A stretch of DNA of 64,000 nt. Source: a virus (lineage: Duplodnaviria; Heunggongvirae; Uroviricota; Caudoviricetes). Below the pieces are notes generated by a model that was given only the letters and a program-made list of their open reading frames with translations, did no database searches and had not been told where the DNA came from. The DNA lies in the IMG/VR virus record IMGVR_UViG_3300031414_000001, positions 32,001 to 96,000 of that record; one strand, 5' to 3'. Numbering within the stretch: position 1 is the first letter of the stretch; each line of letters starts with the position of its first letter. The position numbers and the translations under genes are program-made. Below are positions 2,911-60,460 of this stretch, piece after piece.

Positions 2911-3864
2911 TTACATTTGGTCGTTACAGATCAAATCCACTTCACATAGTAATGCTGATAGGTTCATCTCGCGGTCAGAAACGGAAGCTTGTTTTACAAC
3001 AGCATCACGAATCTTCACTTTGATCTTCATTTCTTTGATTTCGTCTTGTGTGAACATATCTACGTTACGGTACAGGAACGAAAAGAAGCCATCAATTTCA
3101 TCTTCTGGAATGTTCTGTACGATTTGTTCACGCATCTGACGAATATTACCAGCTTCAAGAGCATCAATAATAGCCGCACGATAACTGGCAGTACTATCAA
3201 TTGAGTCTTCAAGCTTAACTAGTTTACCTTTAACTACTGAGCTTTGCAACGTGTTTAAGGTTTTACGGAAATCAGGGAATGTACATTTAATGTACTTGTT
3301 CACCAAGTCTAGACTTTCTTCGGAATCCAGTTCTACACCTTCAGCCAATAGAATTTCAATAATACGAGTGGTGAAATCATCCTGATCATGTTTCTCGATT
3401 ACAATACTTTGTACACGAGACAAAATTGGTTTAAGAATTTTGTGTTGTTCATTTGATGTTAGAATAAAACGAGCATTCTCGTGATAATCTTCCATAATAC
3501 GTTTTAGTGAACCCTGAGCTTTCTGACCCATTTGTTCCATTTCTTCCAGTACGAAGATACGATAATCACCAAAAGCACTTAGACGAGCAGCAGCATCAAT
3601 CTTTTCACGTACTGCGTCCATACCTTCATCTGACATATTAAGAATTGTCACGTCTGAAGGATCTACGAATCCATTCTCTACTAGACCATTAATTAGTACT
3701 TTAATAGCTGTAGTTTTACCAGTACCTGCTGGACCAAAGAATCCAATATGTGGAATTTCACCAGTTTCGATCCACTCTAACATTTTCTGCTTGAATGCTG
3801 GATTCTTAAACACATATTCATCAACGGTTCCTGGGCGATACTTTTCTGTCCATAGAGTGGTCAT
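2911..3864 (-). CDS. 44: Clamp loader large subunit (T4 gp44/RFC-like AAA+)
   Basis: WTEKYRP RFC box, Walker A GPAGTGKTT, FILTSN, ILSR. Confidence 0.92.
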   Translation of the reverse strand: MTTLWTEKYRPGTVDEYVFKNPAFKQKMLEWIETGEIPHIGFFGPAGTGKTTAIKVLINGLVENGFVDPSDVTILNMSDEGMDAVREKIDAAARLSAFGDYRIFVLEEMEQMGQKAQGSLKRIMEDYHENARFILTSNEQHKILKPILSRVQSIVIEKHDQDDFTTRIIEILLAEGVELDSEESLDLVNKYIKCTFPDFRKTLNTLQSSVVKGKLVKLEDSIDSTASYRAAIIDALEAGNIRQMREQIVQNIPEDEIDGFFSFLYRNVDMFTQDEIKEMKIKVKIRDAVVKQASVSDREMNLSALLCEVDLICNDQM

Positions 3865-4923: not shown

Positions 4924-4952
4924 ATTATACCATAAATTTTGTTACCATTTCA
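4924..4952 (-). promoter_or_regulatory. Phage middle-type promoter TGAAAT-N17-TATAAT
   Basis: Member of the 13-copy motif. Confidence 0.7.
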
Positions 4953-5460
4953 AAAATTCGTTAACATCTAAGTCGTATTTAATAGAATCTACCATGTGTA
5001 GTTCTATCAGGAATAGACAATAGCTGCTTACTGAACTTCCACGACCTAAACCCCAAAAGATATTATGTTCTTTTAGATAATCTACCAGCCATATCATACA
5101 GCGAAGCAGTTTAGTCATGTTATAGCTTTCATATAATCCCAATTCATACAGTACTCGTTCACGTTGAACATCAGTACTGCATAAATTAAGGAAGTAGTCT
5201 TCTAGATTGATTTTATCATAAGCTGAGTCATAACGCCATAGTTCATGATTCCTATCATGCTCTATAGTGTAATCTAGCATACGTTCTTCTAATCCGAACT
5301 TACGACAATTATCGTTGAACTTCAATCGTTCAGCTTCGTCTTGTTCGTTAAGCTGGATATAACTTATATCAGCACCGCAGTTGATAGCGTACACAACTGC
5401 GTTTAGATCTAAGCGAACGTCACCATCCTCGCTTATAGTTCGATTTCCTTGTACTTTCAT
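4942..5460 (-). CDS. DNA polymerase III alpha (DnaE)-like protein, N-terminal fragment
   Basis: RVLYEL...WGLGRGSSVSSY...VDSIKYDL..EFL matches DnaE RL..EL...GPGRGSGAGSL...[14 protein letters not shown]; start set at MKVQG. Confidence 0.8.
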   Translation of the reverse strand: MKVQGNRTISEDGDVRLDLNAVVYAINCGADISYIQLNEQDEAERLKFNDNCRKFGLEERMLDYTIEHDRNHELWRYDSAYDKINLEDYFLNLCSTDVQRERVLYELGLYESYNMTKLLRCMIWLVDYLKEHNIFWGLGRGSSVSSYCLFLIELHMVDSIKYDLDVNEFLKW

Positions 5461-5742: not shown

Positions 5743-8112
5743 TTATTGAAATAGATTTGGCACTTTTAATGTTGCCGTAAAGTTTTCACGCTCATAACGA
5801 GCATTATCTTGAACATAGTAACTAAATTCTACCCCTGTAACTTCGAACTCATAATTCAATAACGCACCATGTTCATTATTCTGAATTAGTGTGTTGAAGA
5901 ATGTTTCACCCTGTCCTGGCTGTAAGTAAGCAACTACAATTCCAGGGAAGTATTCGGCTTGAATATTATCTTCGATATAAGGATGGTTCATGAAGCGTGG
6001 TACAGTATCTATCATTTCATCTGATAGACCACCAATAGCATCAACTACGATTCCACGGTTATTTAGATCTGTAGGGTCGGTTAGCAAGTTAACGGTATCT
6101 TCACCAAGAACTAGATATACGTTTTGACGTAATCCAAAGATTTCAGAAATGATTGAATTGCTATAATCAGTATACACAAGTGGATTCAAACTAAGACTTA
6201 CTTGAGTTCCTTCAGGGTGTACTTCTCTGTATAGTACATCATACAGTACGTTTCCTGCGTTGTCAAGGGCTGAACGAACTTTATAGTTACCAAGTACTAA
6301 ACGGAATGATCCGTCAGGCGTTGGAGCACCACTAGTTGTGTTCACTATACCATTACGAATGTTAGTAACAGTTTGTTTAATACCAGGCCAATTATGAGTT
6401 GTGTCCACATAGTTTTCTTTTAGAAGAATACGAGGAACTTTACGAACACCATAACGAGGATCAGAAGCACGATAGTACTGAGCTTGACTGAATGCTGTAG
6501 TACTGATGGTATTGAACCAAGTACGTTCCATTGTCAAAGATGGTTGAATATCAGCACTGATAAAGTTCTGACCGAAACCGCGAACAATTGTAATGTTGAA
6601 ACGTTGGGTTAATGATTTACCATTTTTTCCAGTTGCTACTACATCGAACTCTAATTTAATATCATCGTTCGCTGAGAAGTCTGTGCTTAAAGCATACGCA
6701 GTACCAATCATAAATCCATCAGCACTTAAATCTAATCCGTACTTACGAATATCATTCGGTGAAGTACTTTCATTGATTTCGTATGTGATTAAGTCAGAAC
6801 CACTGGCAACAATTTTAGGATACACAGTATGACCAAAATATTCACCTACGTGAATTGTACCTAAATTAGCATCAGTTTCAAATGAAATATCAGTACCAGT
6901 ATCCCCATTTAAGATAATACGGAATATTCTAGTATTGTTGATAATACCTGAACCTAATGATTCATTATAAATTCCTAAATCATACCATTTTGTAGCATCA
7001 TATGAAATTACCGGATTACCTTCAAATACATCTTCTGATACAACATAAGGATATATGGTAGTATCTTTTAATTGATATAAATGACCGCTGATTGGTACAT
7101 CATGAAAATCAGAAGTATCAGTTGGAGCAATCCAAGTTTGATAAGCACGGAAACGTTTACCGACATAATAAGCATCAGCTTCAGTACTGTAATAACGTTT
7201 AACTGAAACTACTCGAATTTTGATATAAGCATCAATTGGGTCTGAATCATAGAGCATAGTCTGAATAATCTGACCGTTGTTTCCATTGAATTTTAAGCCA
7301 GTATTAACTAAGTTGCCAGTACTGTCTTTAACAAGTAAAGGAACTTCTTCTAATAGACCATTACTTAAATCTGGAACTAAAATTGTTCCTGAACCAGTAA
7401 TATTAGTACTAGGTTTTTCTGAATCAAGAATAGTCAGTACTTCGTAAGCTGGCATGAATACATTAGTAGCACCGTTTATTGATTGACTTTTACCGAATGC
7501 TTGAACGAACAAGCGACTTTCAGCACCATAACCTACACCACCAATGGTGTATAGATTAGAACCATGAGTTGTTAATCCTGGTGTTAGCCAAATTTCGTTA
7601 GTGGTGTTATAATTCAAAGTACTTGAAGTTGTTCCGAGAACACCGCTCGGTAGCGTATTTGCTATTTGACCATCTAGCAACGTAATTACGTTGATACTGT
7701 CAATATTGAATGTTAATGATTCTGGACCATCCCATATTCCATCTTGTGGACATTCTATCTTAAAGTAATAAGCATCAATATAAGATACAGAACTTAAATC
7801 ATATGATTTAGTACTGAATTTTACTACATGCGTACCTTGAGTAGTGGATACTCCAGTTCCTGCGTTGCCAATTGGAACTAATGAAGAAGTACTTTCACCT
7901 ACACTAACTATAAAATCGCGTTCTTCTAAAGTCTCACCAGCACCGACGATGTTATAAGTAAATTCCAAGTACTGGTCATCAGTTAAAACATAAGTATTAT
8001 CGGTAGAAGTTGATTGACTCTTTTTCAAGCGTAGTCTAAAATAGGTGGTTTGTCCTTCTTGTATTGTATTGGTGTCAGCGATCAAATCCCATTGGGGTTC
8101 GAAGTTTGCCAT
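5743..8112 (-). CDS. Large virion structural protein (baseplate/tail-like, Ig-like beta repeats)
   Basis: T/S/G/N-rich beta-type sequence; GGAG SD before MANFEP; TAAATA at 8145-8150. Confidence 0.6.
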   Translation of the reverse strand: MANFEPQWDLIADTNTIQEGQTTYFRLRLKKSQSTSTDNTYVLTDDQYLEFTYNIVGAGETLEERDFIVSVGESTSSLVPIGNAGTGVSTTQGTHVVKFSTKSYDLSSVSYIDAYYFKIECPQDGIWDGPESLTFNIDSINVITLLDGQIANTLPSGVLGTTSSTLNYNTTNEIWLTPGLTTHGSNLYTIGGVGYGAESRLFVQAFGKSQSINGATNVFMPAYEVLTILDSEKPSTNITGSGTILVPDLSNGLLEEVPLLVKDSTGNLVNTGLKFNGNNGQIIQTMLYDSDPIDAYIKIRVVSVKRYYSTEADAYYVGKRFRAYQTWIAPTDTSDFHDVPISGHLYQLKDTTIYPYVVSEDVFEGNPVISYDATKWYDLGIYNESLGSGIINNTRIFRIILNGDTGTDISFETDANLGTIHVGEYFGHTVYPKIVASGSDLITYEINESTSPNDIRKYGLDLSADGFMIGTAYALSTDFSANDDIKLEFDVVATGKNGKSLTQRFNITIVRGFGQNFISADIQPSLTMERTWFNTISTTAFSQAQYYRASDPRYGVRKVPRILLKENYVDTTHNWPGIKQTVTNIRNGIVNTTSGAPTPDGSFRLVLGNYKVRSALDNAGNVLYDVLYREVHPEGTQVSLSLNPLVYTDYSNSIISEIFGLRQNVYLVLGEDTVNLLTDPTDLNNRGIVVDAIGGLSDEMIDTVPRFMNHPYIEDNIQAEYFPGIVVAYLQPGQGETFFNTLIQNNEHGALLNYEFEVTGVEFSYYVQDNARYERENFTATLKVPNLFQ

Positions 8113-8172
8113 ATCTAATCTCCAAAACATAAAAAGCTTTGTCGTATTTATTCTATGGGCTTAATTAAAAAT

Positions 8173-17354: not shown

Positions 17355-17861
17355 TTACTTCGCTTTTAACGTACAGGTAACATTGTTTCCTTGTACTGCG
17401 ACATTTTGGACAAAATCAGACTCTTGAACACGAGAAACGAATTGATTCATCTTTGTGATGTTCGCTGCTACCATGTCAGGATTAGATTTGGCACGACCAG
17501 TCATTTTCATAACTACTCGAACATGCTTACCTTCCTGGATAAATTTTTGAGCAGCTTTCAACTTCGTTTGGAGATCATTCTCCTGAGTACTGAAAGCGAA
17601 CTGTACTTCTTTAACCTGAACGGCGGTTTCACGCTGTTTCTTTTTATTGCTTTTATCAGCTTGTTTTTGCTCATACAAGTACTTGTTCAAGTCCATGATT
17701 TTTACAACAGGAACATCTTGATCAGATACTTGGATCAGATCCATCTCTTTACTGTAAGCAAGATTACGTGCTTCAGCAATTGCCATTACTTTACTCGAAT
17801 CTCCTTGTACAACACGAACATTCTTCGCAGTAATTTTTTCGTTGGCAATAACAGATTTCAT
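17355..17861 (-). CDS. infC: Translation initiation factor IF3
   Basis: NEKI..KNVRVV, MDLIQV..PVVKIMD..KYLYEQK, VKEVQF, NDLQTK...FIQEGKHVRV. Confidence 0.9.
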   Translation of the reverse strand: MKSVIANEKITAKNVRVVQGDSSKVMAIAEARNLAYSKEMDLIQVSDQDVPVVKIMDLNKYLYEQKQADKSNKKKQRETAVQVKEVQFAFSTQENDLQTKLKAAQKFIQEGKHVRVVMKMTGRAKSNPDMVAANITKMNQFVSRVQESDFVQNVAVQGNNVTCTLKAK

Positions 17862-17937
17862 ATAGGATTTGTAACTCCGTGGGGGATTTTGTTTACGTAT
17901 GAGATGGTATCAAAAAGACACCATCTCGTCAAGCGGC

Positions 17938-18132
17938 TTACTGCTTGTTTTCTGCGTCTTTCAACGCTTTGCATATTTCTTGAACAAATTTCAAGTTAGC
18001 TATTGCTGTATCAGCAACGCTACGGGTACGTGGGTACGGTGCTTCTTGAGACATTTTCTCAAGATCAAAAATAATTTGGTCGAACGCACCAACGTCCTCT
18101 AGAATGCGATCATAAAAGGATTTGCTATCCAT
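17938..18132 (-). CDS. Hypothetical protein
   Basis: 64-aa ORF with GGAG SD. Confidence 0.65.
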   Translation of the reverse strand: MDSKSFYDRILEDVGAFDQIIFDLEKMSQEAPYPRTRSVADTAIANLKFVQEICKALKDAENKQ

Positions 18133-18155
18133 GTCAACTCCATGTTGTGTATGTT

Positions 18156-18692
18156 TTAAGCAGTTAGATCGATATGAACTACAGTACTTTCTACTCCAGA
18201 ATCAGCAACAGTAATGTACTCAGTTTTCAATTCACGATAATCGTTAGTTGTGCTTGAGCCAGGGAACAGTGCTTTAGAGTAAGTAACTTGTACTTCAAAG
18301 AATTCGTCAATAATCTCAACACTCAATGCTTCATCAATGATTGCTTTAATCACTGAAGCAGCATCAGCAAAATGATCACTCGTTAGTACTTCTAGAGTGC
18401 TAAGGAATGGTTCAATTGAAATGTAAGATACTACGATTTCTGCGTCAGATGGAACAGTGCTTGCTGTACCCTCTGTACCGAATTTGATTGTAAAATATAC
18501 AGGAACGGATAGTTCTGATAGTTTACGCTCAACATGTTTTAGTCTAACAAAAGCCTGAGCTTTTGTCAATGTTTCAGCGTCCGTTGGAACGGTTGTGCTT
18601 GTATTGTCGTAATCAGCGTACTCGAAAAATTTCTTATCGTCAAGTACTTCGCCAGGTACTTTAATACTAAATGCGTTGAATAAGTTGTTCAT
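18156..18692 (-). CDS. Hypothetical, probably late/structural protein
   Basis: Start MNNLF with GGAG SD; TAAATA at 18721-18726. Confidence 0.65.
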   Translation of the reverse strand: MNNLFNAFSIKVPGEVLDDKKFFEYADYDNTSTTVPTDAETLTKAQAFVRLKHVERKLSELSVPVYFTIKFGTEGTASTVPSDAEIVVSYISIEPFLSTLEVLTSDHFADAASVIKAIIDEALSVEIIDEFFEVQVTYSKALFPGSSTTNDYRELKTEYITVADSGVESTVVHIDLTA

Positions 18693-18728
18693 TATAGTCT
18701 CCATAGAAAGAACTTTCTATTATTTATG

Positions 18729-20065
18729 TTAGAATCTTCCACTTTTACGCAACATCACACTATAACGTGGTCGTGTTAACGCAGTGTACAGAATACGGCA
18801 TTTTGTATCGTTGTTCGGAATTCGTTCAATAAAATCGGTATCGAACCAGATATTATCGAAAGTACTTCCTTGTGATTTGTGAGCCGTAGTCGCATATGGA
18901 TAGTTAATGACATTAATCTTATTCTTGATTACGTAGTAATCTTGCCACATGTAAGGCTTTTTGGTCAATGGATTTTCGACACGTTTTTCAATCTTGTCAA
19001 CAAGATCCTTCAAATATTCTTCTAACTTGATTCGGGTATACGGCCCGACTCCCAATAAGAAGTTACCATTCGGTAACTTGAATTGCCAACAATCAATTCC
19101 TAAGAATGATTCCTGACGAATCTCTGGACACTGAATAACTTGCTGTACCGTATAAGGACAGTTCTCTGTGATGCTTTCAAATACGATTGGTTCACCAGGA
19201 ATAAACTCAGTGTCTGTATGTTCATGAAATACTTCATTACGAATATACATATTAGCGAAGTTAACCCGATAATTTGTATAAGCAATGATTTTGTTTTCCT
19301 GAACGAAATCGTAAATCTTCAATGATGAAGTACTGTGCTCTTTGATATACTCTTTGTATACATCAAGGAATACCATTTCATCTTCAATCGGTGTAATAGT
19401 TTCTAGGTCATCTAATTGGTTTAAGATAGCCATTGGATCATTACGAGTACCGATACATTGACGAATTTGTGTAGCAACACTTAGAATTGGGTTATCTAGT
19501 GCCTGACGAAGTACTTCATTCAATTCGTATTGTAACGGAATATCAAATGTAGGACTTAGTTTTGTTTCACCAGTAGTACCTTCAGATTCAACTGGTGGTA
19601 GCTGGCATTTATCGCCGATGAAAATAATCGCACGGCGTACACGGTGAATTTGATCCATGATGTGTTTGTACATTTCTTCTGAAATCATACTACATTCATC
19701 AACGAACAGTACATCCACCATTGCGGTACTGTTCTTGGATTGTGGGTCATGTTTCAGTACTTGACGACTTTTCTCATAGACTAGTTTTAATCCTAAGAAA
19801 GAGTGTATAGTACTGACTAGAGCATCTTCTTTATCTAATCCAGCATTGAGTAACATCTTACGCAGTACAGCATTAGCTTTGTGCGTGGGTGAAGTTACAG
19901 CAATGTTATATCCCTGATAGATATTCCCGATGATTTCAGATACCAAAGTACTTTTACCAGTTCCAGCATAACCAACGATTACTGCTTCAGTTCGACCTGG
20001 AAAGTTATTGATTCTGTCAATTACATCATCAAAAATATTTTGTTGCTTGTCCGTAAGCGTAATAC

Positions 20066-20069
<4 letters not shown>
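18729..20069 (-). CDS. dda: Dda/RecD-like SF1B DNA helicase
   Basis: GYAGTGKS, PTHKA, DECSM, GDKCQLPPV, TAHKSQGSTF, YTALTR. Confidence 0.9.
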
Positions 20070-21008
<939 letters not shown>

Positions 21009-34673: not shown

Positions 34674-36173
34674 TTACATCCTACCATTCAAAAAGTTTCT
34701 CATACTAGAAACTTTATCCTCAGCCTTTGGTGTATTTATATCTTGTGATTCAGGAGTACTGTGATTTTGTACATCATTTGTACTAGGTTTATGGGTAACT
34801 GTGGTAAGTTTATTCTGTAGAGAACTCATAGCACCGCCAGGAGCTTGTGGAGTACTGAATACATTACTTTTACCAATCATTACCTTCCCACTGTGTTTGA
34901 AACCAGTGTTAATTTCCATTTCCTGAACGGTATTAGGATGATCTAGTACTCGAAGTGAGTCAATATCGTAAGACATGATCAAACGAGAACCTACTGCTGA
35001 ACTATTACGTGTTTTCTGGAAGTCCAGAACCATTTCACCACGATCTTTACGAGCATCAATGTAAATTACGTTATCTGCTGTATAAATCTTGGAAATACCA
35101 CCAGCAATCTGTGCTTGAGACTTAACATCTTCTCCAGCAACACCAGAACGGTTGAACTGACAAGCTGTGAATACAGTTAGATCCATTTTCATAGCTAAAG
35201 CACGTAATTCTTCGGATACGAACTTATCTTTAACGAACGCATTAGACTTATCGTTCGGCCCACAACGATCTGATGTTAACAAATCGAGATAGTCTACACA
35301 AACATAGTCAAGTTTTACGCCAGTTTTGATTTGAAGTTCACGAATGTAACTTTCAATGTCGTTGACAGTACTAACAGATTCAGGTAAACGATGGATACGT
35401 AATTTACCGTTACTGCGTTCCTCAATTTTGACCTTAGCAGCAGTTTCATCAATATCAACTTTGACTTTATTCTGTGCAGTATTAACCATCATACCATAGA
35501 TACGAACAGCAACTAGTTCTGATGCTAGTTCTAGAGTGATGTAAGCACCGTTAAGTCCAGCTTTACTGAAGTTAACTGCTAAGTTTTGGAGGACAACTGA
35601 CTTACCACCACCTGACGCAGCAGCAAAGATTTCTAATTCTTGCTTACCGAAGCCACCAAATAGTTTATAGTCGAAAGTTTCCCAACCAGATTTGAATGTA
35701 CCTTGTTGTTCTGCCAATTTACGAATAACCGCTTCTGGATCTTCATAAATGTCTAGACCAATATCATTCTGTACTGTTACAAGCATGGCTTCACGAATGA
35801 GTTCTTCGATTCCACCATAACGTTTCTGGTTCACCAGTTCCATTCCTTGCTGAATAGCTTGGGCTAGAGCTTTATGACGACAGAATTCACCTACACTATC
35901 CAGTACTGCTTGTTGATTCAAATCTGGAACTACAGTTTCAGAATATGAAAAATCGGCATTGTGTTTAATGTCATTCAGTGTAGGAGTAATGTTGTACTTT
36001 GATGAATAATCATGTACATATTGAATGCTCGCATGATATTCCTTATCGAAATAGTCAGGCTTCAAAACATTCTTACAACGAACATACAAGTCCGGTGTAC
36101 TAAAAATTTGCTGTAGCAAATATAATTGATATTGAATATCGTATTTTCTAACGTCCGTGTTACTTACTGCCAT
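34674..36173 (-). CDS. 41: Replicative DnaB-like helicase (T4 gp41)
   Basis: AASGGGKS, YITLEL, VDYLD, EELRALA, TACQFNR, KTR. Confidence 0.92.
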   Translation of the reverse strand: MAVSNTDVRKYDIQYQLYLLQQIFSTPDLYVRCKNVLKPDYFDKEYHASIQYVHDYSSKYNITPTLNDIKHNADFSYSETVVPDLNQQAVLDSVGEFCRHKALAQAIQQGMELVNQKRYGGIEELIREAMLVTVQNDIGLDIYEDPEAVIRKLAEQQGTFKSGWETFDYKLFGGFGKQELEIFAAASGGGKSVVLQNLAVNFSKAGLNGAYITLELASELVAVRIYGMMVNTAQNKVKVDIDETAAKVKIEERSNGKLRIHRLPESVSTVNDIESYIRELQIKTGVKLDYVCVDYLDLLTSDRCGPNDKSNAFVKDKFVSEELRALAMKMDLTVFTACQFNRSGVAGEDVKSQAQIAGGISKIYTADNVIYIDARKDRGEMVLDFQKTRNSSAVGSRLIMSYDIDSLRVLDHPNTVQEMEINTGFKHSGKVMIGKSNVFSTPQAPGGAMSSLQNKLTTVTHKPSTNDVQNHSTPESQDINTPKAEDKVSSMRNFLNGRM

Positions 36174-36180
36174 TTAAACC

Positions 36181-37227
36181 TCAAATCCATTTTTCAGTTT
36201 GTACTCTAATATCGAATCTATCTGTGTATATACTCTTATGAAGAAGTTGTAAACAGAACAACCTTCCATACTTAGCACATGCTTCATCAAAATCCTTAAT
36301 GTGACGGATTCCCTCTCCATCACGAACAGCCCCGAAGTCAGGTAATGCTACACTGAATCCGTGCTCGATAGCTTGTTCAATTGTTACTAGACCATCTTTA
36401 TCACGGTCTGGTACGATAACTATCATTTTACCACGTTCCTGAGCTTTCTTCAACAATTCAATTTGTGAAGTACTAAGGAAGTAGTTATTAGCAGAGATTC
36501 CACCCATTAATGCTGCGTCAATCGGGCCTTCTGCTACCAGGATGGTTTGCATCCTGTCATCATTTAGCAAATCGAAGTTATAAAAAATGCTCGTACTCAC
36601 TTGGTTCCGATAACGATATTCGCTATCTTTGTCAATGTGACGAGCAGTATAACCGATAATTTGTCCATTCATGTAATACGGAATGATGAACCGTTGGAAC
36701 ATGTAAAACTCTTTTGATGGACTCCAGTACAGATCTAAGTCCAACAGATACGGATTACGATCATTGACTGCGTTAACAACTTTCATGAACTCTGGTGGAA
36801 TATTCGGAGAATTCACCCATTCAAGGAAAGGTTTAGCGTCAGGAGGTAAATCACGTTGTACTATTTTCTGGTATAGTTTTGATGCCGCAGTATCTTGTAC
36901 TTCGTAATCGCCACTTTCTACCATTTCTTTTGCGATTAGCTTAATGCTAATCATTTCTTTATCCGACGCACCATATGAACGAAGCAAGGATTCCATATCC
37001 TTGCTTACATATCTTCCTGGTGTCCAGACTGTTTTTAGGTGACAGTTAAAACAATTATACACAACAGAACCATCATTACGGAACATGTGATTTCCACGTC
37101 CTTTCGTATCAGGTCTTGATTGTCCTCTTGTAACACAAGCAGGACAATTGTGTTGATTCCAGCGATCCATCATTGGTGCTGGGTCGTGCATAATTGATGC
37201 CATAATGTCTTGTATCTGATTCATCAT
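36181..37227 (-). CDS. 61: DNA primase (T4 gp61-like)
   Basis: Zn finger CPAC...CFNC; TOPRIM EGPIDA, PDRDKDG, KDFDE. Confidence 0.88.
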   Translation of the reverse strand: MMNQIQDIMASIMHDPAPMMDRWNQHNCPACVTRGQSRPDTKGRGNHMFRNDGSVVYNCFNCHLKTVWTPGRYVSKDMESLLRSYGASDKEMISIKLIAKEMVESGDYEVQDTAASKLYQKIVQRDLPPDAKPFLEWVNSPNIPPEFMKVVNAVNDRNPYLLDLDLYWSPSKEFYMFQRFIIPYYMNGQIIGYTARHIDKDSEYRYRNQVSTSIFYNFDLLNDDRMQTILVAEGPIDAALMGGISANNYFLSTSQIELLKKAQERGKMIVIVPDRDKDGLVTIEQAIEHGFSVALPDFGAVRDGEGIRHIKDFDEACAKYGRLFCLQLLHKSIYTDRFDIRVQTEKWI

Positions 37228-37289: not shown

Positions 37290-38261
37290 TTATCTGCGAA
37301 TCAAAATCTTAGGGATAGTGTTCAACGGATTATAATCTTTCTTGATTATATTAGGTGGGTAATTTTTAACAATAGGAGGGATAGCAGCTACTACACGAAC
37401 CCACATAAGTTGTCCGTGGAAGTTAAATGCTCTAATTCCTTCCAATGGAATTGGAATACCGTTTGGATCAAAATCATTCTCAATGTATTCTTTACCATCA
37501 AGTTTAATGATGAACCACTTATAGTCTTCAGCATCCTTTGGAGTTTCATTAGCTAGACAACCTTGTAGTTGAACTCTACCAATGAAATTATTGAAATAAA
37601 ATGCGATAGTACTTAAACCATCTACTAAACCATATTGAGCATCAGCACGAATCGCAGAACTATGCAATACATCGAATTCCCCAATAATACCATTAGAAAT
37701 AGGTTTATTTTCCTTATCTTTAATTGGTAGATATGAAGGATTCTTTTCTGCACTGATTTCTTGACTTGGTGTAAATGTTGGGGCTGCTAGATTACTGATA
37801 GTTAATTCAGCACTAGCTTCAAAGTTTAAACCAGTATACAAGTACTCTGTAGGTTCAATTAGATCTCCATCCATTGTTACCTTAGTAATACTCCAACGGT
37901 ATTTTGAGCCAACACTTAGGTCTTGTATAACTCCAGCAGGAACCATACAACCATAGTAGACTTTAACTTTATTACTAACAGTTGGTCGTGCTTGTCCAGC
38001 TTCAGATACCCATGAAGGTATTTGCTTGTCAAGTACTGTTTCGAAGATTCTAGTATCCGAACGGGCATCAAAGATGCTGAATACTAGATATTGATTATCA
38101 CTAATCAATGTATATTTTCCATCAGCATTATGTATTGTAAAGCTAAGTGGATTGTTTGCACCTCTATAAATGGTTAGTTTCTGTTGAGAGAAAGGCATAT
38201 TGAAATTGCCTAGAGAAACTTCATTGTTATAAGGATACATGTAAACGCCATGATGTGCCAT
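37290..38261 (-). CDS. Hypothetical structural protein
   Basis: 323-aa beta-rich ORF; TAAATA at 38299-38304. Confidence 0.6.
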   Translation of the reverse strand: MAHHGVYMYPYNNEVSLGNFNMPFSQQKLTIYRGANNPLSFTIHNADGKYTLISDNQYLVFSIFDARSDTRIFETVLDKQIPSWVSEAGQARPTVSNKVKVYYGCMVPAGVIQDLSVGSKYRWSITKVTMDGDLIEPTEYLYTGLNFEASAELTISNLAAPTFTPSQEISAEKNPSYLPIKDKENKPISNGIIGEFDVLHSSAIRADAQYGLVDGLSTIAFYFNNFIGRVQLQGCLANETPKDAEDYKWFIIKLDGKEYIENDFDPNGIPIPLEGIRAFNFHGQLMWVRVVAAIPPIVKNYPPNIIKKDYNPLNTIPKILIRR

Positions 38262-38314: not shown

Positions 38315-38668
38315 ATGAATGAATATAAAACTTATCCGTTCGTGACTATTATTGAACACGACGATATAATCTATTATGGGATTATCAAAATCAAAAGTAA
38401 ACAATACATGACATTGTACTGCTTCTCTGAGATGGATGAATCCCTTCAAGAAGAACTGCTATTACTAGCTAATAACTGGTGGTGGCAAAGTAATCGAACC
38501 ATTCCTATTTGCTTATTCATGCAAGAAGAAATGGAAAAATTTGAACCATATACCAAACGATTTAACACTGACCAAGTGAAAGTTCATAGCGGTCCAGTTA
38601 TTTCTTTAAGTGATCTACCTACTAAACGTATTAAACGTCGCAACGTTGCTCTTAAGAAGCGGAAGTGA
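38315..38668 (+). CDS. Hypothetical protein
   Basis: 117-aa plus-strand ORF (WWWQSNRTIPI), TAAATA at 38274-38279. Confidence 0.7.
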   Translation: MNEYKTYPFVTIIEHDDIIYYGIIKIKSKQYMTLYCFSEMDESLQEELLLLANNWWWQSNRTIPICLFMQEEMEKFEPYTKRFNTDQVKVHSGPVISLSDLPTKRIKRRNVALKKRK

Positions 38669-39302
38669 TGTATTCAACCAATGCGTTTAACTGAACAACA
38701 ATCATCAAACTATAAGCGTATGCATGAGGCTTTTTGAAGTATCTTAACTTCCGACCTTCAGCATCAAGACCAATACCCTCATAATCCCAAATCACTGCCC
38801 TTACTTCATCCCAACTATTCATACTCTGACATTGACGCTTACCTGGACGAATCATAGCAATAAACATTGCCAATTCATCTATGCTTTTAGGCTTCCAGAT
38901 GTGGAGCAACGTAATGTGCTTCTTAATCTGAGATAGTTCTTCTACGAATTCCGGTACTAATAATAGATCCCAATCAGGCTCTTTGTTCATTAACTCCTTC
39001 AAATGATCCCTATCACGAACATGCTCATAAGCCGATTGAGACAGAATATCAACTTTTTGATATCCTAATCTTTCGGCTTCTTTATATTGTATGCTTGATA
39101 ATCCACTAATTGGATCTACAGGTATATTATCGAAGTGAACACCACTATTGTGTGGGATCAAACCATCTTCTGTAATCTTCTCTACACTTCTAGTACAGGG
39201 AAGTTGCTCTATCACTGACTTTCCATCTTTAAAGTCAATATCAATATCAGTTCGAGCTTTACGGTAATTAATAGTTTGAGAACTCTTGTGATCCGTATCC
39301 AT
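38652..39302 (-). CDS. DNA polymerase III alpha (DnaE)-like protein, C-terminal catalytic fragment
   Basis: TDIDIDF (DnaE PDFDVDF), HNSGV, GYQKVDIL (third Asp), AMIRPG, FKKPHAYAY. Confidence 0.85.
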   Translation of the reverse strand: MDTDHKSSQTINYRKARTDIDIDFKDGKSVIEQLPCTRSVEKITEDGLIPHNSGVHFDNIPVDPISGLSSIQYKEAERLGYQKVDILSQSAYEHVRDRDHLKELMNKEPDWDLLLVPEFVEELSQIKKHITLLHIWKPKSIDELAMFIAMIRPGKRQCQSMNSWDEVRAVIWDYEGIGLDAEGRKLRYFKKPHAYAYSLMIVVQLNALVEYITSAS

Positions 39303-39627
39303 TCGTTATTTCCTTTAGTCTTTGGACTTCTTGTTTCAACGTAGCAATATCATTAGCCATAATCTTAAGTATGGATGTTTGCTCTTTAATACGCTGACGT
39401 AAAGTGAATAACGCTTCTTCATGCTGTCCAATAAAGGTAATAGCCTGTTCGATACGTTTAGGATCAGTAACCTGAAAAGTTCTGTCTCCCATTGTAATCT
39501 CGGTAACAGTACCTTGACGCAGGATTGAAAGCTGTGAAGCATTTTCTTTTAATTTCTCTTTCTCAAGAGCAATTTCTGTTTTTTCTTCTTCTGTAAGTTC
39601 TGGTTCAGAATAAATTCTTGATTTCAT
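39268..39627 (-). CDS. Hypothetical coiled-coil protein
   Basis: 119-aa ORF. Confidence 0.65.
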   Translation of the reverse strand: MKSRIYSEPELTEEEKTEIALEKEKLKENASQLSILRQGTVTEITMGDRTFQVTDPKRIEQAITFIGQHEEALFTLRQRIKEQTSILKIMANDIATLKQEVQRLKEITNGYGSQEFSNY

Positions 39628-40343
39628 ATACCTGCCTCCGTGAGTAAATTTCGTATATCCATTACTTCATCATTGTACCTGATTTGTAAAATCTTGAAGT
39701 ACGTTGGGTCAATGAATCGAACAAGATACTCTAACTCTGAATCCGAGAAACGGTTCAGTAGTTTATTTCCACTTTCTGGAGAAGCAGCGTAGATAATCCA
39801 CGGTGATAGTTTACCAGTCTCGAACCACAATATAGCACGTTCAGTACTGACATTCTCAAAGAAATCTGTCCATTCATTATCTGTAGCAACTCCCCATTCC
39901 ACAATTGCGTTAATAGAACGCTCGATACCTCGACGTGGATGTTCATTACGAATACAGCTAATTACCCATTCTTCGTATGTCTTTTGGGATTTCCATTCAT
40001 AGACGGTTTTACCACCAGTTAAGACATGCTTGATGAATTGTTCTTTATTTAGAATATCATGAGACAAAATATACTGAGCAAAATCATAGAAGTCATTAAA
40101 GTACCTGGATTTTATGAATTGCATCAATGGTTCTTCATTTTTCTTCATCTGAAATTTGTGTGCTTCCATGAATAACATGTACAGACGATATGCCTCACGC
40201 ATCAATCGGGATTCACGGTCATTATATCGATCACGCTTCACACAATTATGTGTCAGTACTGTATCTTCACGTTTATATTCTTTATCACAAAATCTACATT
40301 TAAAAGTAGGGGCTTTAGCAGCCCCTTTTTTATTTGTTGCCAT
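39624..40343 (-). CDS. Zn-finger hypothetical protein
   Basis: FKCRFC...THNC N-terminal motif. Confidence 0.65.
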   Translation of the reverse strand: MATNKKGAAKAPTFKCRFCDKEYKREDTVLTHNCVKRDRYNDRESRLMREAYRLYMLFMEAHKFQMKKNEEPLMQFIKSRYFNDFYDFAQYILSHDILNKEQFIKHVLTGGKTVYEWKSQKTYEEWVISCIRNEHPRRGIERSINAIVEWGVATDNEWTDFFENVSTERAILWFETGKLSPWIIYAASPESGNKLLNRFSDSELEYLVRFIDPTYFKILQIRYNDEVMDIRNLLTEAGI

Positions 40344-41175
40344 ATTTTTCGGTTTCTGCCTTGAATAGTTTTAAGAGTGATTTAATCTCTTGGTCTGAAC
40401 TACCTAAATCCTTAAGTAGTTCTTCAAAGGTTTCTTTCGTGTAACTGGACAATAATATTTTGTATTCTGCCTCATTCATTTGGACAGATACGGATTCTGG
40501 TTGTGTACGTTTAATAATTTCGAAAATATTCTTATCTACATTCTTTAAACCTTTACAATGTGCCAACCAGTTATGAGCACGTTTTTGTGGCCCAATCATT
40601 TCTGATACTGAACACATAAGTTGATAGACCAATTCAGGGTGATTCTTCATTTCCCAAAAGTTACTATTAACCATGTCATTCAACATAATCAAATGGTACT
40701 TAATTGTAGTACTATCGATCAATGAAATGATTTCATGTCCAGTAATACCAAATTCTTTCATCATTAGTACTAGAGCATCAGCAGATGCCCTATCCTGAAC
40801 GGCGAATTTGATTCTCCAGTCATATTTTGCGTGTTCATACTTAGCAGTACTGATACATACTCCGTTACCAGTACCGTTGAACTCGTCTTTTAGTTCATTT
40901 AGAGCTTCTTTACCGCCGCCTGACCATTTTCCAAAGATAGCTTCTACTTTCTTCGCATTATACGTCAATTGGACTGAATCATCAAGAGAACTAATCCAAC
41001 GTAATACGATATAAGGCTGGAAATGCTTCTTTTCTTTATCACTTAGGGTTTCATAATACCCATAATCTGCCATGTCAATCTTTTCAAGTAATAGATTCAT
41101 ATCTAACTTGTGATTTGACTCGGACGCTGAATCTTCATCCTCTGAAGATATTGGTAATCCGCTAAAATCGAACAT
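40330..41175 (-). CDS. Clamp loader small subunit (gp62-like) candidate with internal insertion
   Basis: FQPYIVLRWIS and NDMVN...HPELVYQL...NWL resemble gp62 motifs. Confidence 0.5.
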   Translation of the reverse strand: MFDFSGLPISSEDEDSASESNHKLDMNLLLEKIDMADYGYYETLSDKEKKHFQPYIVLRWISSLDDSVQLTYNAKKVEAIFGKWSGGGKEALNELKDEFNGTGNGVCISTAKYEHAKYDWRIKFAVQDRASADALVLMMKEFGITGHEIISLIDSTTIKYHLIMLNDMVNSNFWEMKNHPELVYQLMCSVSEMIGPQKRAHNWLAHCKGLKNVDKNIFEIIKRTQPESVSVQMNEAEYKILLSSYTKETFEELLKDLGSSDQEIKSLLKLFKAETEKYGNK

Positions 41176-42161: not shown

Positions 42162-42190
42162 ATTATAGCACAAAAATGCTACTCATTCCA
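42162..42190 (-). promoter_or_regulatory. Phage middle-type promoter TGGAAT-N17-TATAAT
   Basis: 13-copy motif. Confidence 0.75.
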
Positions 42191-43690: not shown

Positions 43691-44566
43691 TTAGTGTGGT
43701 TGTTCATCCACATTTATTTCCGTATCTTCGAACGTTACCAAACCAGCATCAATACGTCGAGTAATTTCGACTTCTACAGTATGAGCAAGGTCAGCATCAA
43801 AGTTTGGCATTTCAGGATTCATTACATCCATGTTCATAATCATCCATTCCAGATAATTCATGGGTACATCTTCCATAGCCCAGCCTTTGTGCTTACCAAT
43901 AGTCATAGTACTGTAACATATTGGGGTATTAGCTAGTGATACAACTTGTGAACCAATATCCTTACTGGTATCAATCAAGTTACGTTCGATGGCTATATTT
44001 ACTAAGTGAGAAAGTACCTTATATGTCATATATACATCGTCTTCAGCACTGTGAGGAACGATTTTATGAGTACAAGTCTTATATAACTCAAATTTGAACC
44101 ATAAGAAGCTCAAAGTAAGGTTTTTAAACTCGGTATCTTCAGCAAATAGCTTTTTAGCTAGTTTCAAAGTACAAATCCAGCTATCGTCGTTCTCAAATTC
44201 AGGAACTACCTTAGAATTAAGGTGCTTTACTGTGTTTTTCTGTAACATTCGACGGTCAAACTGCACGTTGTGTCCTACATAGTACTGTTTAAGTTCGAAT
44301 AACGGATAAAATTCAGAATGTTTATCTGAATATGATTCTTCGTTTGCTAAATCTTCAGTTGTAATGAAGTGTACCGCTGATGCTCCAGGTGGAACATCAT
44401 GCGTTGGTTTGAAACGGGTTGTATAATTATAAACGTCATCAAATGAGTCATTAGAACTCACTGGAAACGACGCACTGAACTCAATAATGTCTGAATCGTC
44501 ATCAGTACCAGTTGTTTCAGTATCTAATATCATAACATTATTGTAAAATTTGTCAAGCTCTGTCAT
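43691..44566 (-). CDS. DEDDh 3'-5' exonuclease (DnaQ/ExoX-like)
   Basis: LDTETTG, GHNVQFD, HSAEDD; C-terminal GKHKG...VPMNYLEW domain. Confidence 0.88.
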   Translation of the reverse strand: MTELDKFYNNVMILDTETTGTDDDSDIIEFSASFPVSSNDSFDDVYNYTTRFKPTHDVPPGASAVHFITTEDLANEESYSDKHSEFYPLFELKQYYVGHNVQFDRRMLQKNTVKHLNSKVVPEFENDDSWICTLKLAKKLFAEDTEFKNLTLSFLWFKFELYKTCTHKIVPHSAEDDVYMTYKVLSHLVNIAIERNLIDTSKDIGSQVVSLANTPICYSTMTIGKHKGWAMEDVPMNYLEWMIMNMDVMNPEMPNFDADLAHTVEVEITRRIDAGLVTFEDTEINVDEQPH

Positions 44567-56140: not shown

Positions 56141-56872
56141 TTAGCAACCACTTACGTAGATGCTATAAACAGCGATACCAGTATCAACAGTTACGTTCAT
56201 CATACCAGTTTTGGTGAATCCCATTGTCTTAGATTCAGCACTGGATACGCGGTTCAGTGCTTGGAATACACGATCAATTGGATAACCGTAACCTTTGGTT
56301 AGATCACCTTCAGTTTTAGAGAACTGTAGGGTTCCTGTATGGTTGTTTTTATTCTTTTCACCAACGTAGAAGTATAAGCTGTCGTCCTCAGTGTAGGGAG
56401 TGACTAAAGCAGAGAAAGATTTAAACACGCCTGAGAAGCTTTTTAGTTCATTAACCTTTGCGGCACTAGGTGTAACCTGTACATCATATGGTTGGTCAGT
56501 GAATCGTGGTTGGTTCGGAATATATTTTTCCGCAACTACTAGATAGTTGGTATTTGCTTCGTCGGAATTGAAGGTCAGGCTTTTAACAACACCATCTTTC
56601 GCATTCACGCCGATTTTAGTACTTTCAGTCTTATAGACATTCAGGTTTAGTAGACCTTGAAGCATTCCAAGATTACCAATACCGAAACGACCTACAACTT
56701 CAGGTACGTCTTCTTTAGTATATGCTCGCATAACTAAATTTTTGTCAGAAGTATAAGCTTCCATATAAACACGTTGGCCTTCGCCACGATCTTCGCTTGA
56801 AATAGCGATACAATCAAAGTCAATTCCAGCGGTGGTGTTTACCAGGTCGCGTAGTACGTCACGTAATTCCAT
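56141..56872 (-). CDS. 45: Sliding clamp (T4 gp45-like)
   Basis: FGIGNLGML motif, two-domain size, position near the polymerase. Confidence 0.65.
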   Translation of the reverse strand: MELRDVLRDLVNTTAGIDFDCIAISSEDRGEGQRVYMEAYTSDKNLVMRAYTKEDVPEVVGRFGIGNLGMLQGLLNLNVYKTESTKIGVNAKDGVVKSLTFNSDEANTNYLVVAEKYIPNQPRFTDQPYDVQVTPSAAKVNELKSFSGVFKSFSALVTPYTEDDSLYFYVGEKNKNNHTGTLQFSKTEGDLTKGYGYPIDRVFQALNRVSSAESKTMGFTKTGMMNVTVDTGIAVYSIYVSGC

Positions 56873-57430: not shown

Positions 57431-60400
57431 TTACCAACCGAAGAAACCAGTGTTTAATTCGATTGAACTCTTTTCGTCTATAGCAATATCCATATCCAGA
57501 ATACCGAAGATATTACCCAATTTCTTTGTCAGTACTGCCAATTCCATAGCATCATCATCGAACGGAAGTTCTAGATACCACTCTGGTAAGTAATCTACAC
57601 AGTCAATTGGATAACCAATCTTCTTAATACCTAATGGATTCGGTTTTAGGTCACAAACAATTACTTTAGTACCGTCTGTTGCTTCTGGAACTGATTTATC
57701 ATCGTTCAAATCACGAAGTTTGTTCCATTGAATAGCGGCTAGTACGTGTCCTACCTTACATTTACCTGTATCCTGGTATTCTTTCTCTTTATTGGTATAG
57801 TTTTTCACTGTTTTTGGTGAACCTTTCTCAATACTTGGCTTGTCTTTGAACTCTTTCTTGAACGCACGAACACGTTTACGTAGTTCTTCTTCAGTTTCAC
57901 CCACCAGCAACGCAATTAGCGTTTCTTCTAGGAAGTTCTGGATGTATTTTGGTGTGTCTGAACGTTTAATTTCAAGACCCATAGCTTTGATTTTACCAGG
58001 TTTACCATCCACATCTAAACGGAACCCATCTTCCCAATATTTCAGAATAGCATAACGCTTCTTCTTCAAGAATAAACCACGAGAACCAACCATTTCTAAG
58101 TCAGCACCAACGATTTTACCCTTTTCAATACCAGTATTAAAGGTTTGATCCATAAATTCAGGGAATGATGCACCTACAGTGTCACCAATCATTTGATAAA
58201 GTTCTACAACTTCATCTTTAGACATTTCAAATGGAATGTCATTCTCTTTGTAGTAATGTGCTACGCTGAAATACACGGAATCCGTGTCACCATATACAAC
58301 TACACCACCACTATGATCGTATGTTTCAGTACATACTTCATTAATCTTACTCGCCATGTGCTTAGTCATGCTACGACCAGTTAATGTAACTGATTGTCCT
58401 AGACGTTTGTCGAAGAAACGTGAACCTTTGTTCAACAACGCACCATATAGTGAGTTTAGAAGAATCTTACGAATCTGTTGGTTCTGTTTCCAGAACGCAG
58501 ACTGAGTTTTACAGTACTTTTTATCGGAATCTTGTACGAATACACGACCATTCTCTAAACGCATACCATTATCAGCGATAATCTTAGCAAGTTCAGCATA
58601 ATTCTTGTCAGCAAGAGCTAAACGCATCAGATAAATCGGATCACCTTCGTGCAAGTTCGTTTTATGGATACCAGCACCAAATTGTAGTGATTTTAGTACT
58701 TCTTCAAGTTCTTGTAAAGCTTCTTCTGGCATTTCCCAACCATCTGTTGCCAGGTGTTTGTAGTCAATAACCATTTTCTGTTGTGCTTTACGTTCTGAGT
58801 ACCATACTGTAAGAATTTCTGGAATTACACCGTACTTAGTCTTATCAAATAGAGTACCGTTCGCACTTAGTACGATAGTACTGTCTTCACTAAAGATAAT
58901 ATCATATAATTCCGCACCTGTAGCTTGGAAACTTGTACCATCTTCTAGATCTACAGTAATGATTTCGTCAGATTTCTCACGAACCATTGTAAATTCAACA
59001 CTTGCGAACAAACCGTGCCATGCTTCAGTATATTTCGGCTCAAAACGTCCTTTTCCGCGATAACGCTGACGTTGTTCCTCAATACGTGCTGCTAGATAAG
59101 CTTCAGTATAAGTTTGACGTAGTTGACCAAGGATACATTCAGTACTCATGCCTAAAGCACGTAGAACTGTTGGATATAGTGAGTTAAAGTCCGTACAACC
59201 TAACCAATCAATCAATCCTAGTACTGGATCTTGTACCCAAGCACCAGCAGCCTTAGAACCTTTAGGTTGTTCGTCTTCATCATCTTCATCGTCATCATAA
59301 TCAATTTCGTAGTCCTGATATTCGAAATCAGCTTCATCATCATCAAGTTTACGCTTGTTGAATACTACTTCACCACGTTGGTGAGCCAGATTGATGATTG
59401 CCGTGTCAATTAGTGCTACTGAACCCATTGTAGTACTGATAAGTACACATTCTTTGTGTGCTAGTCGGTTATGTAGGTTGATGAAGTCCATTTTCTCGTC
59501 TATTTTCTTCAACAAGATACTATCTTGCTTAGAATAACGTAAGAATGTCATGTAATCTTCACGATATAACTTATCCAAAGACCCATCATAGGATACTTTG
59601 TTCTCGCCAGTTACTTTTTCAGCAATATAATCTAGTTTATATGACTGTTCTACTTGTCCAGCATGTTTCTTATAAAGAGCTAGATAGTCTAGGTGAACAC
59701 GTCCAACTAAATCAAAGGTTACAATGGTTTTACCAAACATATCTGCTTCACGAGCGTTTGGTTTCTTGTTCCATAAGCACCAACGAGCAAGAGTAGCTTC
59801 ATTAAAGAGCTTTCTTGTACGGTTTACCATGTATGGAATATCAAAGAATTCGCTGTTCCAGCCAGAGAGTACGTCGCCGTCTTCAATTAGCTCGAAGAAC
59901 GTTTCAAACATCTCTGTTTCTTCAGTATAGAGGATGACAATACTATCAGGATTGTCAGTTTCCGCATTGAGGCGGTTAATAATGTCCTGAGCTTCATGGA
60001 TTTCCATACCAGATGGAGCCATTGTAAGAACATAGTCCTTACCTGTCCAGCTTTGGTACAAAGAAATTGCTGTTACTCGGTTGAATGGATCACTCGGCTG
60101 AGCATATCCGAACTTAGGGTGAAAGTCTGTTTCAATATCGAAGAATACGATATTAAGGTCAGGAGAAGACTTACCCATGTAATGTTTCGCAAGGGTTTTA
60201 AATGTCACATTACAATCTGCTTCATAAATCTTAGCAGAAACAGGTAATGATTCCATTTGTTTTTTCATATCTGAATAGCGAGAGAACTCAAACTTCTCGG
60301 CAAAAGTGCCATTGATAGTTTTATGTTCACCACGTGGAGATTCTACATAGTACTCGTATACTGGTTCAATTTCGCGTAGAACACGACGACCATTAATACG

Positions 60401-60460
60401 TTCAGCAACGTGTAGTACTTCTCCAGTACGTTTCCTATCCATATATCCATCTATATACAT
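57431..60460 (-). CDS. 43: B-family DNA polymerase (T4 gp43-like)
   Basis: Exonuclease FDIET, WNSEFFD; polymerase DFNSLYP, KILLNSLYG, YGDTDS, KKRY. Confidence 0.97.
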   Translation of the reverse strand: MYIDGYMDRKRTGEVLHVAERINGRRVLREIEPVYEYYVESPRGEHKTINGTFAEKFEFSRYSDMKKQMESLPVSAKIYEADCNVTFKTLAKHYMGKSSPDLNIVFFDIETDFHPKFGYAQPSDPFNRVTAISLYQSWTGKDYVLTMAPSGMEIHEAQDIINRLNAETDNPDSIVILYTEETEMFETFFELIEDGDVLSGWNSEFFDIPYMVNRTRKLFNEATLARWCLWNKKPNAREADMFGKTIVTFDLVGRVHLDYLALYKKHAGQVEQSYKLDYIAEKVTGENKVSYDGSLDKLYREDYMTFLRYSKQDSILLKKIDEKMDFINLHNRLAHKECVLISTTMGSVALIDTAIINLAHQRGEVVFNKRKLDDDEADFEYQDYEIDYDDDEDDEDEQPKGSKAAGAWVQDPVLGLIDWLGCTDFNSLYPTVLRALGMSTECILGQLRQTYTEAYLAARIEEQRQRYRGKGRFEPKYTEAWHGLFASVEFTMVREKSDEIITVDLEDGTSFQATGAELYDIIFSEDSTIVLSANGTLFDKTKYGVIPEILTVWYSERKAQQKMVIDYKHLATDGWEMPEEALQELEEVLKSLQFGAGIHKTNLHEGDPIYLMRLALADKNYAELAKIIADNGMRLENGRVFVQDSDKKYCKTQSAFWKQNQQIRKILLNSLYGALLNKGSRFFDKRLGQSVTLTGRSMTKHMASKINEVCTETYDHSGGVVVYGDTDSVYFSVAHYYKENDIPFEMSKDEVVELYQMIGDTVGASFPEFMDQTFNTGIEKGKIVGADLEMVGSRGLFLKKKRYAILKYWEDGFRLDVDGKPGKIKAMGLEIKRSDTPKYIQNFLEETLIALLVGETEEELRKRVRAFKKEFKDKPSIEKGSPKTVKNYTNKEKEYQDTGKCKVGHVLAAIQWNKLRDLNDDKSVPEATDGTKVIVCDLKPNPLGIKKIGYPIDCVDYLPEWYLELPFDDDAMELAVLTKKLGNIFGILDMDIAIDEKSSIELNTGFFGW

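Follow-up and report, generated by a model that had tools for sequence, protein, structure and literature searches.

The protein encoded at 38652..39302 of the window (the whole stretch of 64,000 nucleotides analysed here) is the C-half of a split minimal DNA polymerase III alpha subunit (Pol III alpha). Together with an N-half encoded 33 kb away, it probably acts as an active but poorly processive, template-directed dNTP polymerase, which would carry out short-patch synthesis, most plausibly primer extension or gap filling, beside a family B polymerase (PolB). The homology, residue conservation, selection, co-occurrence and natural fusions reported below are computed observations.

38652..39302 (−): C-half of split minimal Pol III alpha, 216 aa, with D19/D21/D85, K83, R152-K155 (RPGK) and H193/Y197
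4942..5460 (−): N-half, 172 aa, with a PF07733 match (E=2.6e-8) and a GRGSS nucleotide-binding loop

The sequence-only reading of this DNA left undecided whether such a system had been described; Iyer et al. 2021 (Viruses 13:63, PMC7824862) supply the answer. From sequence, that paper describes a minimal Pol III alpha in two pieces for the group 2.2 jumbo phages, in which distant genes encode NTP-binding and Mg2+/template-binding proteins beside a family B polymerase, and it suggests a role in strand synthesis, possibly of one strand, or in repair. The kind of enzyme is therefore already published, and the 172-aa half has been listed as a truncated alpha subunit in the paper on phage CBB (PMC5259590). 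Added here are the arginine losses, the family-specific near-invariant lysines and a fused copy coupled to a plasmid-type Rep gene; the accessible part of Iyer et al. 2021 makes no mention of natural fusions, arginine losses or a Rep-linked copy. The open-access literature searched yielded neither a biochemical nor a genetic test of this protein family, here called mini-DnaE; the passages searched in a 2026 review, in Yutin et al. 2024 and in the Sharanji paper likewise gave no experimental test.

Identity of the 216-aa protein

The open reading frame starts with ATG, with AAGGA a short way 5'. The claim that it retains the three catalytic Asp residues of DnaE together with HNSGV, AMIRPG and FKKPHAYAY was confirmed by alignment to E. 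coli DnaE: the motifs DIDIDF, HNSGV, KVDIL, AMIRPG and FKKPHAYAY start at residues 19, 51, 83, 149 and 189, and their E. coli counterparts start in the same order at 400, 511, 553, 636 and 756. The motif spacing bears out the proposed deletion of the thumb and most of the fingers. D19 and H51 are 32 aa apart versus 110 in E. coli DnaE (78 residues lost, in the DnaE thumb region), R152 and H193 are 41 aa apart versus 121 (80 residues lost, with most of the fingers gone), and the chain ends at about residue 784 of 1160. The summed length of the halves, 216 + 172 = 388 aa, agrees with the earlier estimate of about 390 aa versus about 1160 aa for DnaE.

The C-half matches the PHROGs family phrog_11778 'DNA polymerase' (E=1e-107). 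Profile and fold searches were needed to place it further, because a single-sequence search of the PDB gave no DnaE match and the sole Pfam result was a sub-threshold finger match. With a profile built from 65 homologues, DnaE chains ranked first in the PDB. The AlphaFold model (pLDDT 91.8) had DnaE or PolC as its best 15 matches in Foldseek, and its best seven matches in VIA-align were all PolC or DnaE (PolC: Z 9.6, 201 residues aligned, rmsd 4.0; DnaE: Z 9.1, likewise with about 200 of the 216 residues aligned), followed by an unrelated protein at Z 4.4. The predicted fold fits C-family polymerases only. PolC (Geobacillus 3F2B) is the best single structural match; it differs in that a single long chain also carries OB, PHP and exonuclease parts, and the sequence motifs of mini-DnaE are DnaE-like. 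The likeness to bacterial DnaE (E. coli 2HNH, 5M1S; Taq 2HPI; mycobacterial 5LEW) comprises the Pol beta-type palm, D401/D403/D555, K553, the GRGS loop, the RPG motif and the H760/Y764 helix, in identical order. The differences are the size (388 versus 1160 aa), a chain break just before the first catalytic Asp, the lack of intact PHP, thumb, long fingers, HhH, clamp site, OB and tau site, and the failure to keep R390, R396, R709 and R710.

Searches of the whole 371-kb record for PHP, HHH_6 and finger families found none, with positive controls, and PF07733 had a single match in the record, namely the N-half. A supply of the lost DnaE domains from elsewhere in the genome is rejected on these whole-record searches. 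The earlier statement that the PHP, clamp-binding and OB domains are absent stands for the last two; for PHP there is no genome match, yet the start of the N-half may be a remnant of it.

Two genes, one predicted enzyme

The N-half aligns to E. coli DnaE 322-396, with R140, G141 and S142 corresponding to R362, G363 and S364. The two halves abut: the N-half stops near E. coli residue 394, four residues past the R390 position, and the aligned range of the C-half starts at about 394, many C-halves beginning 1-6 residues before D19. Intein sequences were sought at the ends of both halves and none was found. In cyanobacteria, DnaE is likewise encoded by two distant genes, the products of which are spliced through a split intein into a full-length chain; the phage system differs in having no intein, another break point and a minimal core.

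Structure prediction gave a complex of the N-half and C-half with a score of 0.90, versus 0.00 for three controls; the runs shared at least 92% of contacts, and the pLDDT of the partners was at least 89. The mark used for a complex was reached by 58 of 80 solved pairs and by 2 of 110 mismatched pairs, and the halves may pass it owing to their likeness to solved DnaE. In the predicted complex, the catalytic strand 22-24 pairs with strand 134-137, which precedes the GRGS loop.

Natural fusions of the two halves occur in two types, represented by P0276, P0365 and P0366 (375-376 aa; 78-81% identity to P0276) and by P0358 (336 aa). Both of the longer fusions that were examined occupy the usual C-half position, and in a quick tree the two types nest separately amid split forms, P0358 on a long branch. 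The phage contigs that carry the 375-376-aa fusions at L214:1066-2193 and L216:519-1649 are AT-rich and stem from independent samples. The model of P0276 (pTM 0.87) matched DnaE with Z 21.5 (rmsd 6.2-6.6, 336-340 residues aligned) and PolC with Z 20.5 (rmsd 3.5, 289 aligned), versus Z<=3.8 for other Pol beta-fold transferases. In this model the first ~75 residues of the N-half overlay the PHP position with low confidence (pLDDT 46-78), and model residues 1-15 onward align, in the same low-confidence region, with DnaE residues 13-49 onward; the modelled overlay suggests that this piece may be a PHP remnant. The abutting ranges without an intein, the predicted complex and the natural fusions together argue that the halves join as one enzyme, a dimer.

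The 336-aa single-chain mini-DnaE P0358 lacks even the N-terminal 75-aa piece. At L215:1516-4181, in an 8-kb contig with 59% G+C, its gene and a PF03090 Replicase gene of 552 aa overlap at the stop codon of the latter. No phage replication genes were recognised on this contig; scans of metagenomes, viruses and plasmids gave no relatives of this Rep-linked fusion, which is confined to a single contig. It has possibly been captured by a plasmid-like element. Reps of the PF03090 family make primers that a separate polymerase extends, and the coupling therefore favours primer extension, as judged from this one contig. If the 336-aa chain extends primers alone, it would be a very small working C-family polymerase. 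The natural single-chain fusions (336-376 aa) simplify an assay of activity.

Conserved residues and predicted chemistry

D19, D21 and D85 correspond to E. coli DnaE D401, D403 and D555, K83 to K553, H193 to H760 and Y197 to Y764. The sequence-only reading had named a lack of conservation of the catalytic Asp residues among homologs as one ground for refutation, and the check does not refute it: among representatives found by profile, D19 and D21 are each kept in 130/130 and D85 in 140/141, alongside K83 in 141/141 and H193 in 116/120. These C-half figures refer to the profile-found set, some other loci having been picked by motif patterns; the percentages given below for the N-half include pattern-picked loci. 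With dN/dS values of 0.02-0.08 against close relatives, the N-half and C-half genes alike are under purifying selection.

In E. coli DnaE, R362, R390, R709 and R710 have been reported to contact the incoming dATP (PMC4374717). Only R362 survives, as R140 of the N-half. The R390 position is a conserved Glu (N-half E168; 87% E, 9% D), R709 and R710 belong to the part that has been deleted, and no residue is fixed at the R396 position, so that by alignment the family is without three or four of the triphosphate-binding arginines of DnaE. Two basic residues are instead near-invariant and specific to the family, K155 (94%; P642 in E. coli) and K/R171 (96%), and these may stand in for the lost arginines. 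Ordinary polymerase chemistry should not be assumed, mainly because the dNTP-contacting arginines are lost and the family has basic residues of its own instead. The missing arginines could also point to a catalytically dead protein, serving as a scaffold or as a decoy for host DnaE. We consider this highly improbable, given that the metal ligands are all essentially invariant over members at 30-45% identity and that the surfaces for host partners (clamp, tau and epsilon sites) are the very parts that have been lost.

In DnaE the steric gate is H760 (PMC8485763; PMC11253446), and altering the residue before it changes sugar selectivity (PMC8485763). At that position E. coli has S759 and this phage Pro; 115/120 distant members have Ser or Ala. 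Retention of the gate His points to dNTP substrates, and with the kept primer-end Lys it speaks, at the level of alignment, more for a templated polymerase of dNTPs than for an enzyme that uses rNTPs. RNA synthesis, by a second primase or an RNA polymerase, might be suggested by the nearby primase and helicase genes and by the Pro before the gate, where E. coli has S759; set against the gate His and the Ser or Ala before it in nearly all distant members, and against the intact motifs of the phage's own primase, it has very little probability.

Replication genes and neighbours

The source record, of 370,971 bases, is a CBB/GAP32-like jumbo phage genome (371 kb) in which PolB is intact. The C-half shares 97.7% identity with its counterpart in Erwinia phage Kaldavass and 92-94% with the CBB, BF and GAP32 copies. 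The window contains the following replication genes and neighbours.

57431..60460 (−): family B DNA polymerase, 1009 aa, motifs A, B and C intact
36181..37227 (−): DnaG-type primase, zinc-binding cysteines and TOPRIM acidic motifs intact
34674..36173 (−): DnaB-like helicase
2911..3864 (−): clamp-loader ATPase (gp44/RFC), phrog_168 (E=2e-76), four genes downstream of the N-half
40330..41175 (−): gp62-like, probable clamp-loader small subunit (hhalign to T4 gp62, E=0.039)
43691-44566 (−): epsilon-like DEDDh exonuclease
39624..40343 (−): CCHC zinc-finger protein, 239 aa, N-terminal finger, invariant C16, C19, H32 and C34
38315..38668 (+): convergent 117-aa gene with a tryptophan-rich motif, preceded by a late-type promoter motif and overlapping the 3' end of the C-half gene by 17 nt

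PolB is presumably the replicase. The setting is the same in kind as that of the group 2.2 split Pol III alpha: a stand-alone Asp-bearing C-unit and a distant N-unit are both present, other Pol III domains are absent here too (PHP, HHH_6 and finger having been searched), and a family B polymerase accompanies a T4-type replisome (primase, helicase and clamp-loader ATPase). The earlier placement of the C-half gene between the primase-helicase genes and the gp62-like gene is right in outline; two genes intervene on each side (38315-38668 and 37290-38261 towards the primase, 39268-39627 and 39624-40343 towards the gp62-like gene), and the gp62-like label itself is weakly supported. One of 11 members matches a clamp-loader PHROG, and the homologue in Alishewanella phage Slickus01 follows the RFC gene. 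The gp62-like protein has 281 aa versus ~155 aa in distant homologues, which do not have its ~90-aa insertion. Sequence comparison gave no confirmation of the sliding-clamp label of 56141-56872.

Among 133 C-half loci, the zinc-finger gene is present in 125, immediately upstream of the C-half in 66, and it stays by the C-half even in rearranged genomes; its product is a candidate partner. The 117-aa gene is also present in 125/133, with a late-type promoter motif upstream in 70% of loci. The gp62-like gene is found in 106, primase in 98, UvsW in 94 and helicase in 78. N-half loci contain a GroES-like gene in 77/82 and the clamp-loader ATPase gene in 63/82. The DEDDh exonuclease is not a fixed partner, because it lies near the C-half in only 16/133 loci, those of close relatives. 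Neither the zinc-finger protein nor the 117-aa protein matches DnaE, and the idea that either is a detached piece of it is rejected; identity of the zinc-finger protein with the T4 gp59 helicase loader is unsupported (hhalign E=0.49; no gp59 among the 25 families listed). Atlas searches gave no name for either neighbour, and no family or fold match was found for the 117-aa protein.

The constancy of these two neighbours, which flank the C-half in 125/133 loci and persist after rearrangement, bears on a reading in which the dimer, alone or with a neighbour, is a dNTP transferase and no ordinary templated polymerase, tailing DNA ends or adding dNMP to a protein or an unusual primer. The loss of the thumb, long fingers and OB, the replacement of R390 by Glu, the absence of R709/R710 and the family-specific K155 would suit such an enzyme. 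We nevertheless regard it as unlikely: K83, R152 and the steric-gate helix are retained, the fold gives Z 14-21 to C-family polymerases versus Z<=3.8 to template-free transferases, and the C-half gene lies in a replisome context. A broader notion, which we hold to be doubtful, is that the family has been rewired, with residues of its own for the triphosphate arginines, a nearly lost duplex grip and a reaction new for the fold; this new reaction would be dNMP transfer without a template or onto a protein primer, or else primer extension by the 336-aa chain on its own.

The N-half and the C-half each lie near a different clamp-loader gene. This would fit a lagging-strand replicase that is made processive by the clamp, the clamp loader and the zinc-finger neighbour and divides the strands with PolB, as would its retention across phages of 141 kb to 490 kb; Iyer et al. 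2021 (PMC7824862) raise synthesis of one strand as possible. A search of mini-DnaE for a clamp-binding motif gave none, however, and the genome has no separate PHP, finger or HhH match. As the neighbours do not resemble DnaE and the exonuclease is seldom nearby, this arrangement is quite unlikely.

Putative promoters

42162..42190 (−): replication-class promoter-like site, heading the abutting gene run from 42128 to 38652, in which the C-half is last
6238..6266 (−): sigma-70-like site ~800 nt upstream of the N-half, within the structural gene 5743-8130

The promoter-like element TG(A/G)AA..N..TG(C/G)TATAAT, an element described for CBB and GAP32, has 29 strict copies genome-wide and 0 in 5 shuffles; the replication-class promoter has been described for CBB (PMC5259590). 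Such sites precede polymerase, clamp-like, SSB-like, primase and topoisomerase genes. Within 4924-63787 (−) of the window there are at least 12 copies with replication genes downstream.

A gene with the late-type TAAATA motif usually stands 2-4 genes upstream of the N-half, mostly without an intervening terminator; the motif is found at 70-100% of those genes versus 0-6% of replication genes, and in this genome a structural gene with the late motif precedes the N-half. This arrangement could speak for a late role in genome maturation, for example copying of the long terminal repeat at packaging, with assembly delayed until the N-half is transcribed late. Against it, 47/79 N-halves, versus 11.5 expected, have a strong site of the sigma-70-like or extended -10 kind in the 900 nt upstream, the site at 6238..6266 is kept in 6/6 close relatives (protein constraint could contribute), and phage PA5oct has such a site two genes upstream. 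We consider a late maturation role very unlikely. The site at 6238..6266 is possibly the N-half promoter. Late-only expression of the N-half is not claimed, because upstream sigma-70-like sites are four times commoner than expected, and the idea that the split serves as a timing switch is weakened by the same conserved sites. Neither gp220 nor gp288 of PA5oct is flagged as a virion protein. At 4924-4952 (−), the promoter of the GroES/clamp-loader run has a -35-like element that coincides in part with the final codons of the N-half gene.

Proposed role

We infer a dimer in the cell, its activity, its low processivity and its role as follows. The 216-aa and 172-aa proteins would fold together, non-covalently, into a single C-family (Pol beta-fold) active site, to which the C-half would contribute the metal-binding aspartates, the primer-end lysine and the steric-gate helix and the N-half the GRGS nucleotide loop. 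Because the thumb, long fingers, HhH, clamp-binding and OB parts are missing, the grip on the duplex should be weak and few dNTPs added per binding. That the protein is a minimal C-family core and not a processive replicase, as the sequence-only reading had proposed, is supported by the absence of the duplex-gripping and clamp-binding parts and by PolB being the likely replicase.

The dimer might extend RNA primers made by the primase and then hand off to PolB. The setting of the C-half, in the company of primase, helicase, UvsW and gp62-like genes and behind a replication-class promoter, is in favour of short-patch synthesis beside PolB in general. B. subtilis DnaE, which extends RNA primers beside PolC, and the comparable eukaryotic Pol alpha provide the functional model: each is a second, less processive polymerase beside the main replicase. 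They differ in being full-length and biochemically shown, and their replicases cannot use RNA primers, a limit that this PolB is not known to share. T4 gp43 extends RNA primers unaided, so PolB has no evident need of a hand-off enzyme. As a specific assignment, primer extension or lagging-strand hand-off is tentative. Alternatively, the dimer would close short gaps in intermediates of lagging-strand synthesis and of recombination, and to such gap filling, in repair or recombination, we give less weight.

A one-third-size bacterial-type polymerase core is retained beside a family B replicase in hundreds of large-phage lineages, and the selection on it is strong. If active, mini-DnaE would define a minimal C-family polymerase, show a phage replisome of two polymerase families and explain how catalysis proceeds without the usual triphosphate-binding arginines.

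Occurrence in phages and other genomes

Relatives of the C-half number 620 at E<=0.001 among 50%-identity representatives, and mini-DnaE is present in phages from 141 kb to 490 kb. All nine near-complete carrier genomes encode PolB and the N-half, and eight encode the C-half; the one without the C-half also has no zinc-finger neighbour and may be incomplete. A role as sole replicase is rejected, as no near-complete phage genome carries mini-DnaE without PolB, and the 141-kb Slickus01 has PolB too.

Cellular copies amounted to 10 matches, every one in a metagenome-assembled genome. They are probably mis-binned phage contigs, because the seven that were checked show phage gene order.

Alishewanella phage Slickus01, a non-jumbo phage of 141 kb, encodes both halves 11 kb apart (L220:8533-9045 and 17514-20495), with adjacent genes for the large and small clamp-loader subunits just upstream of the C-half and PolB in two pieces. 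On a 205-kb phage contig, an 860-aa protein (L232:9763-12345) with major vault protein Pfam matches (PF17795, PF11978) is encoded two genes from a C-half.
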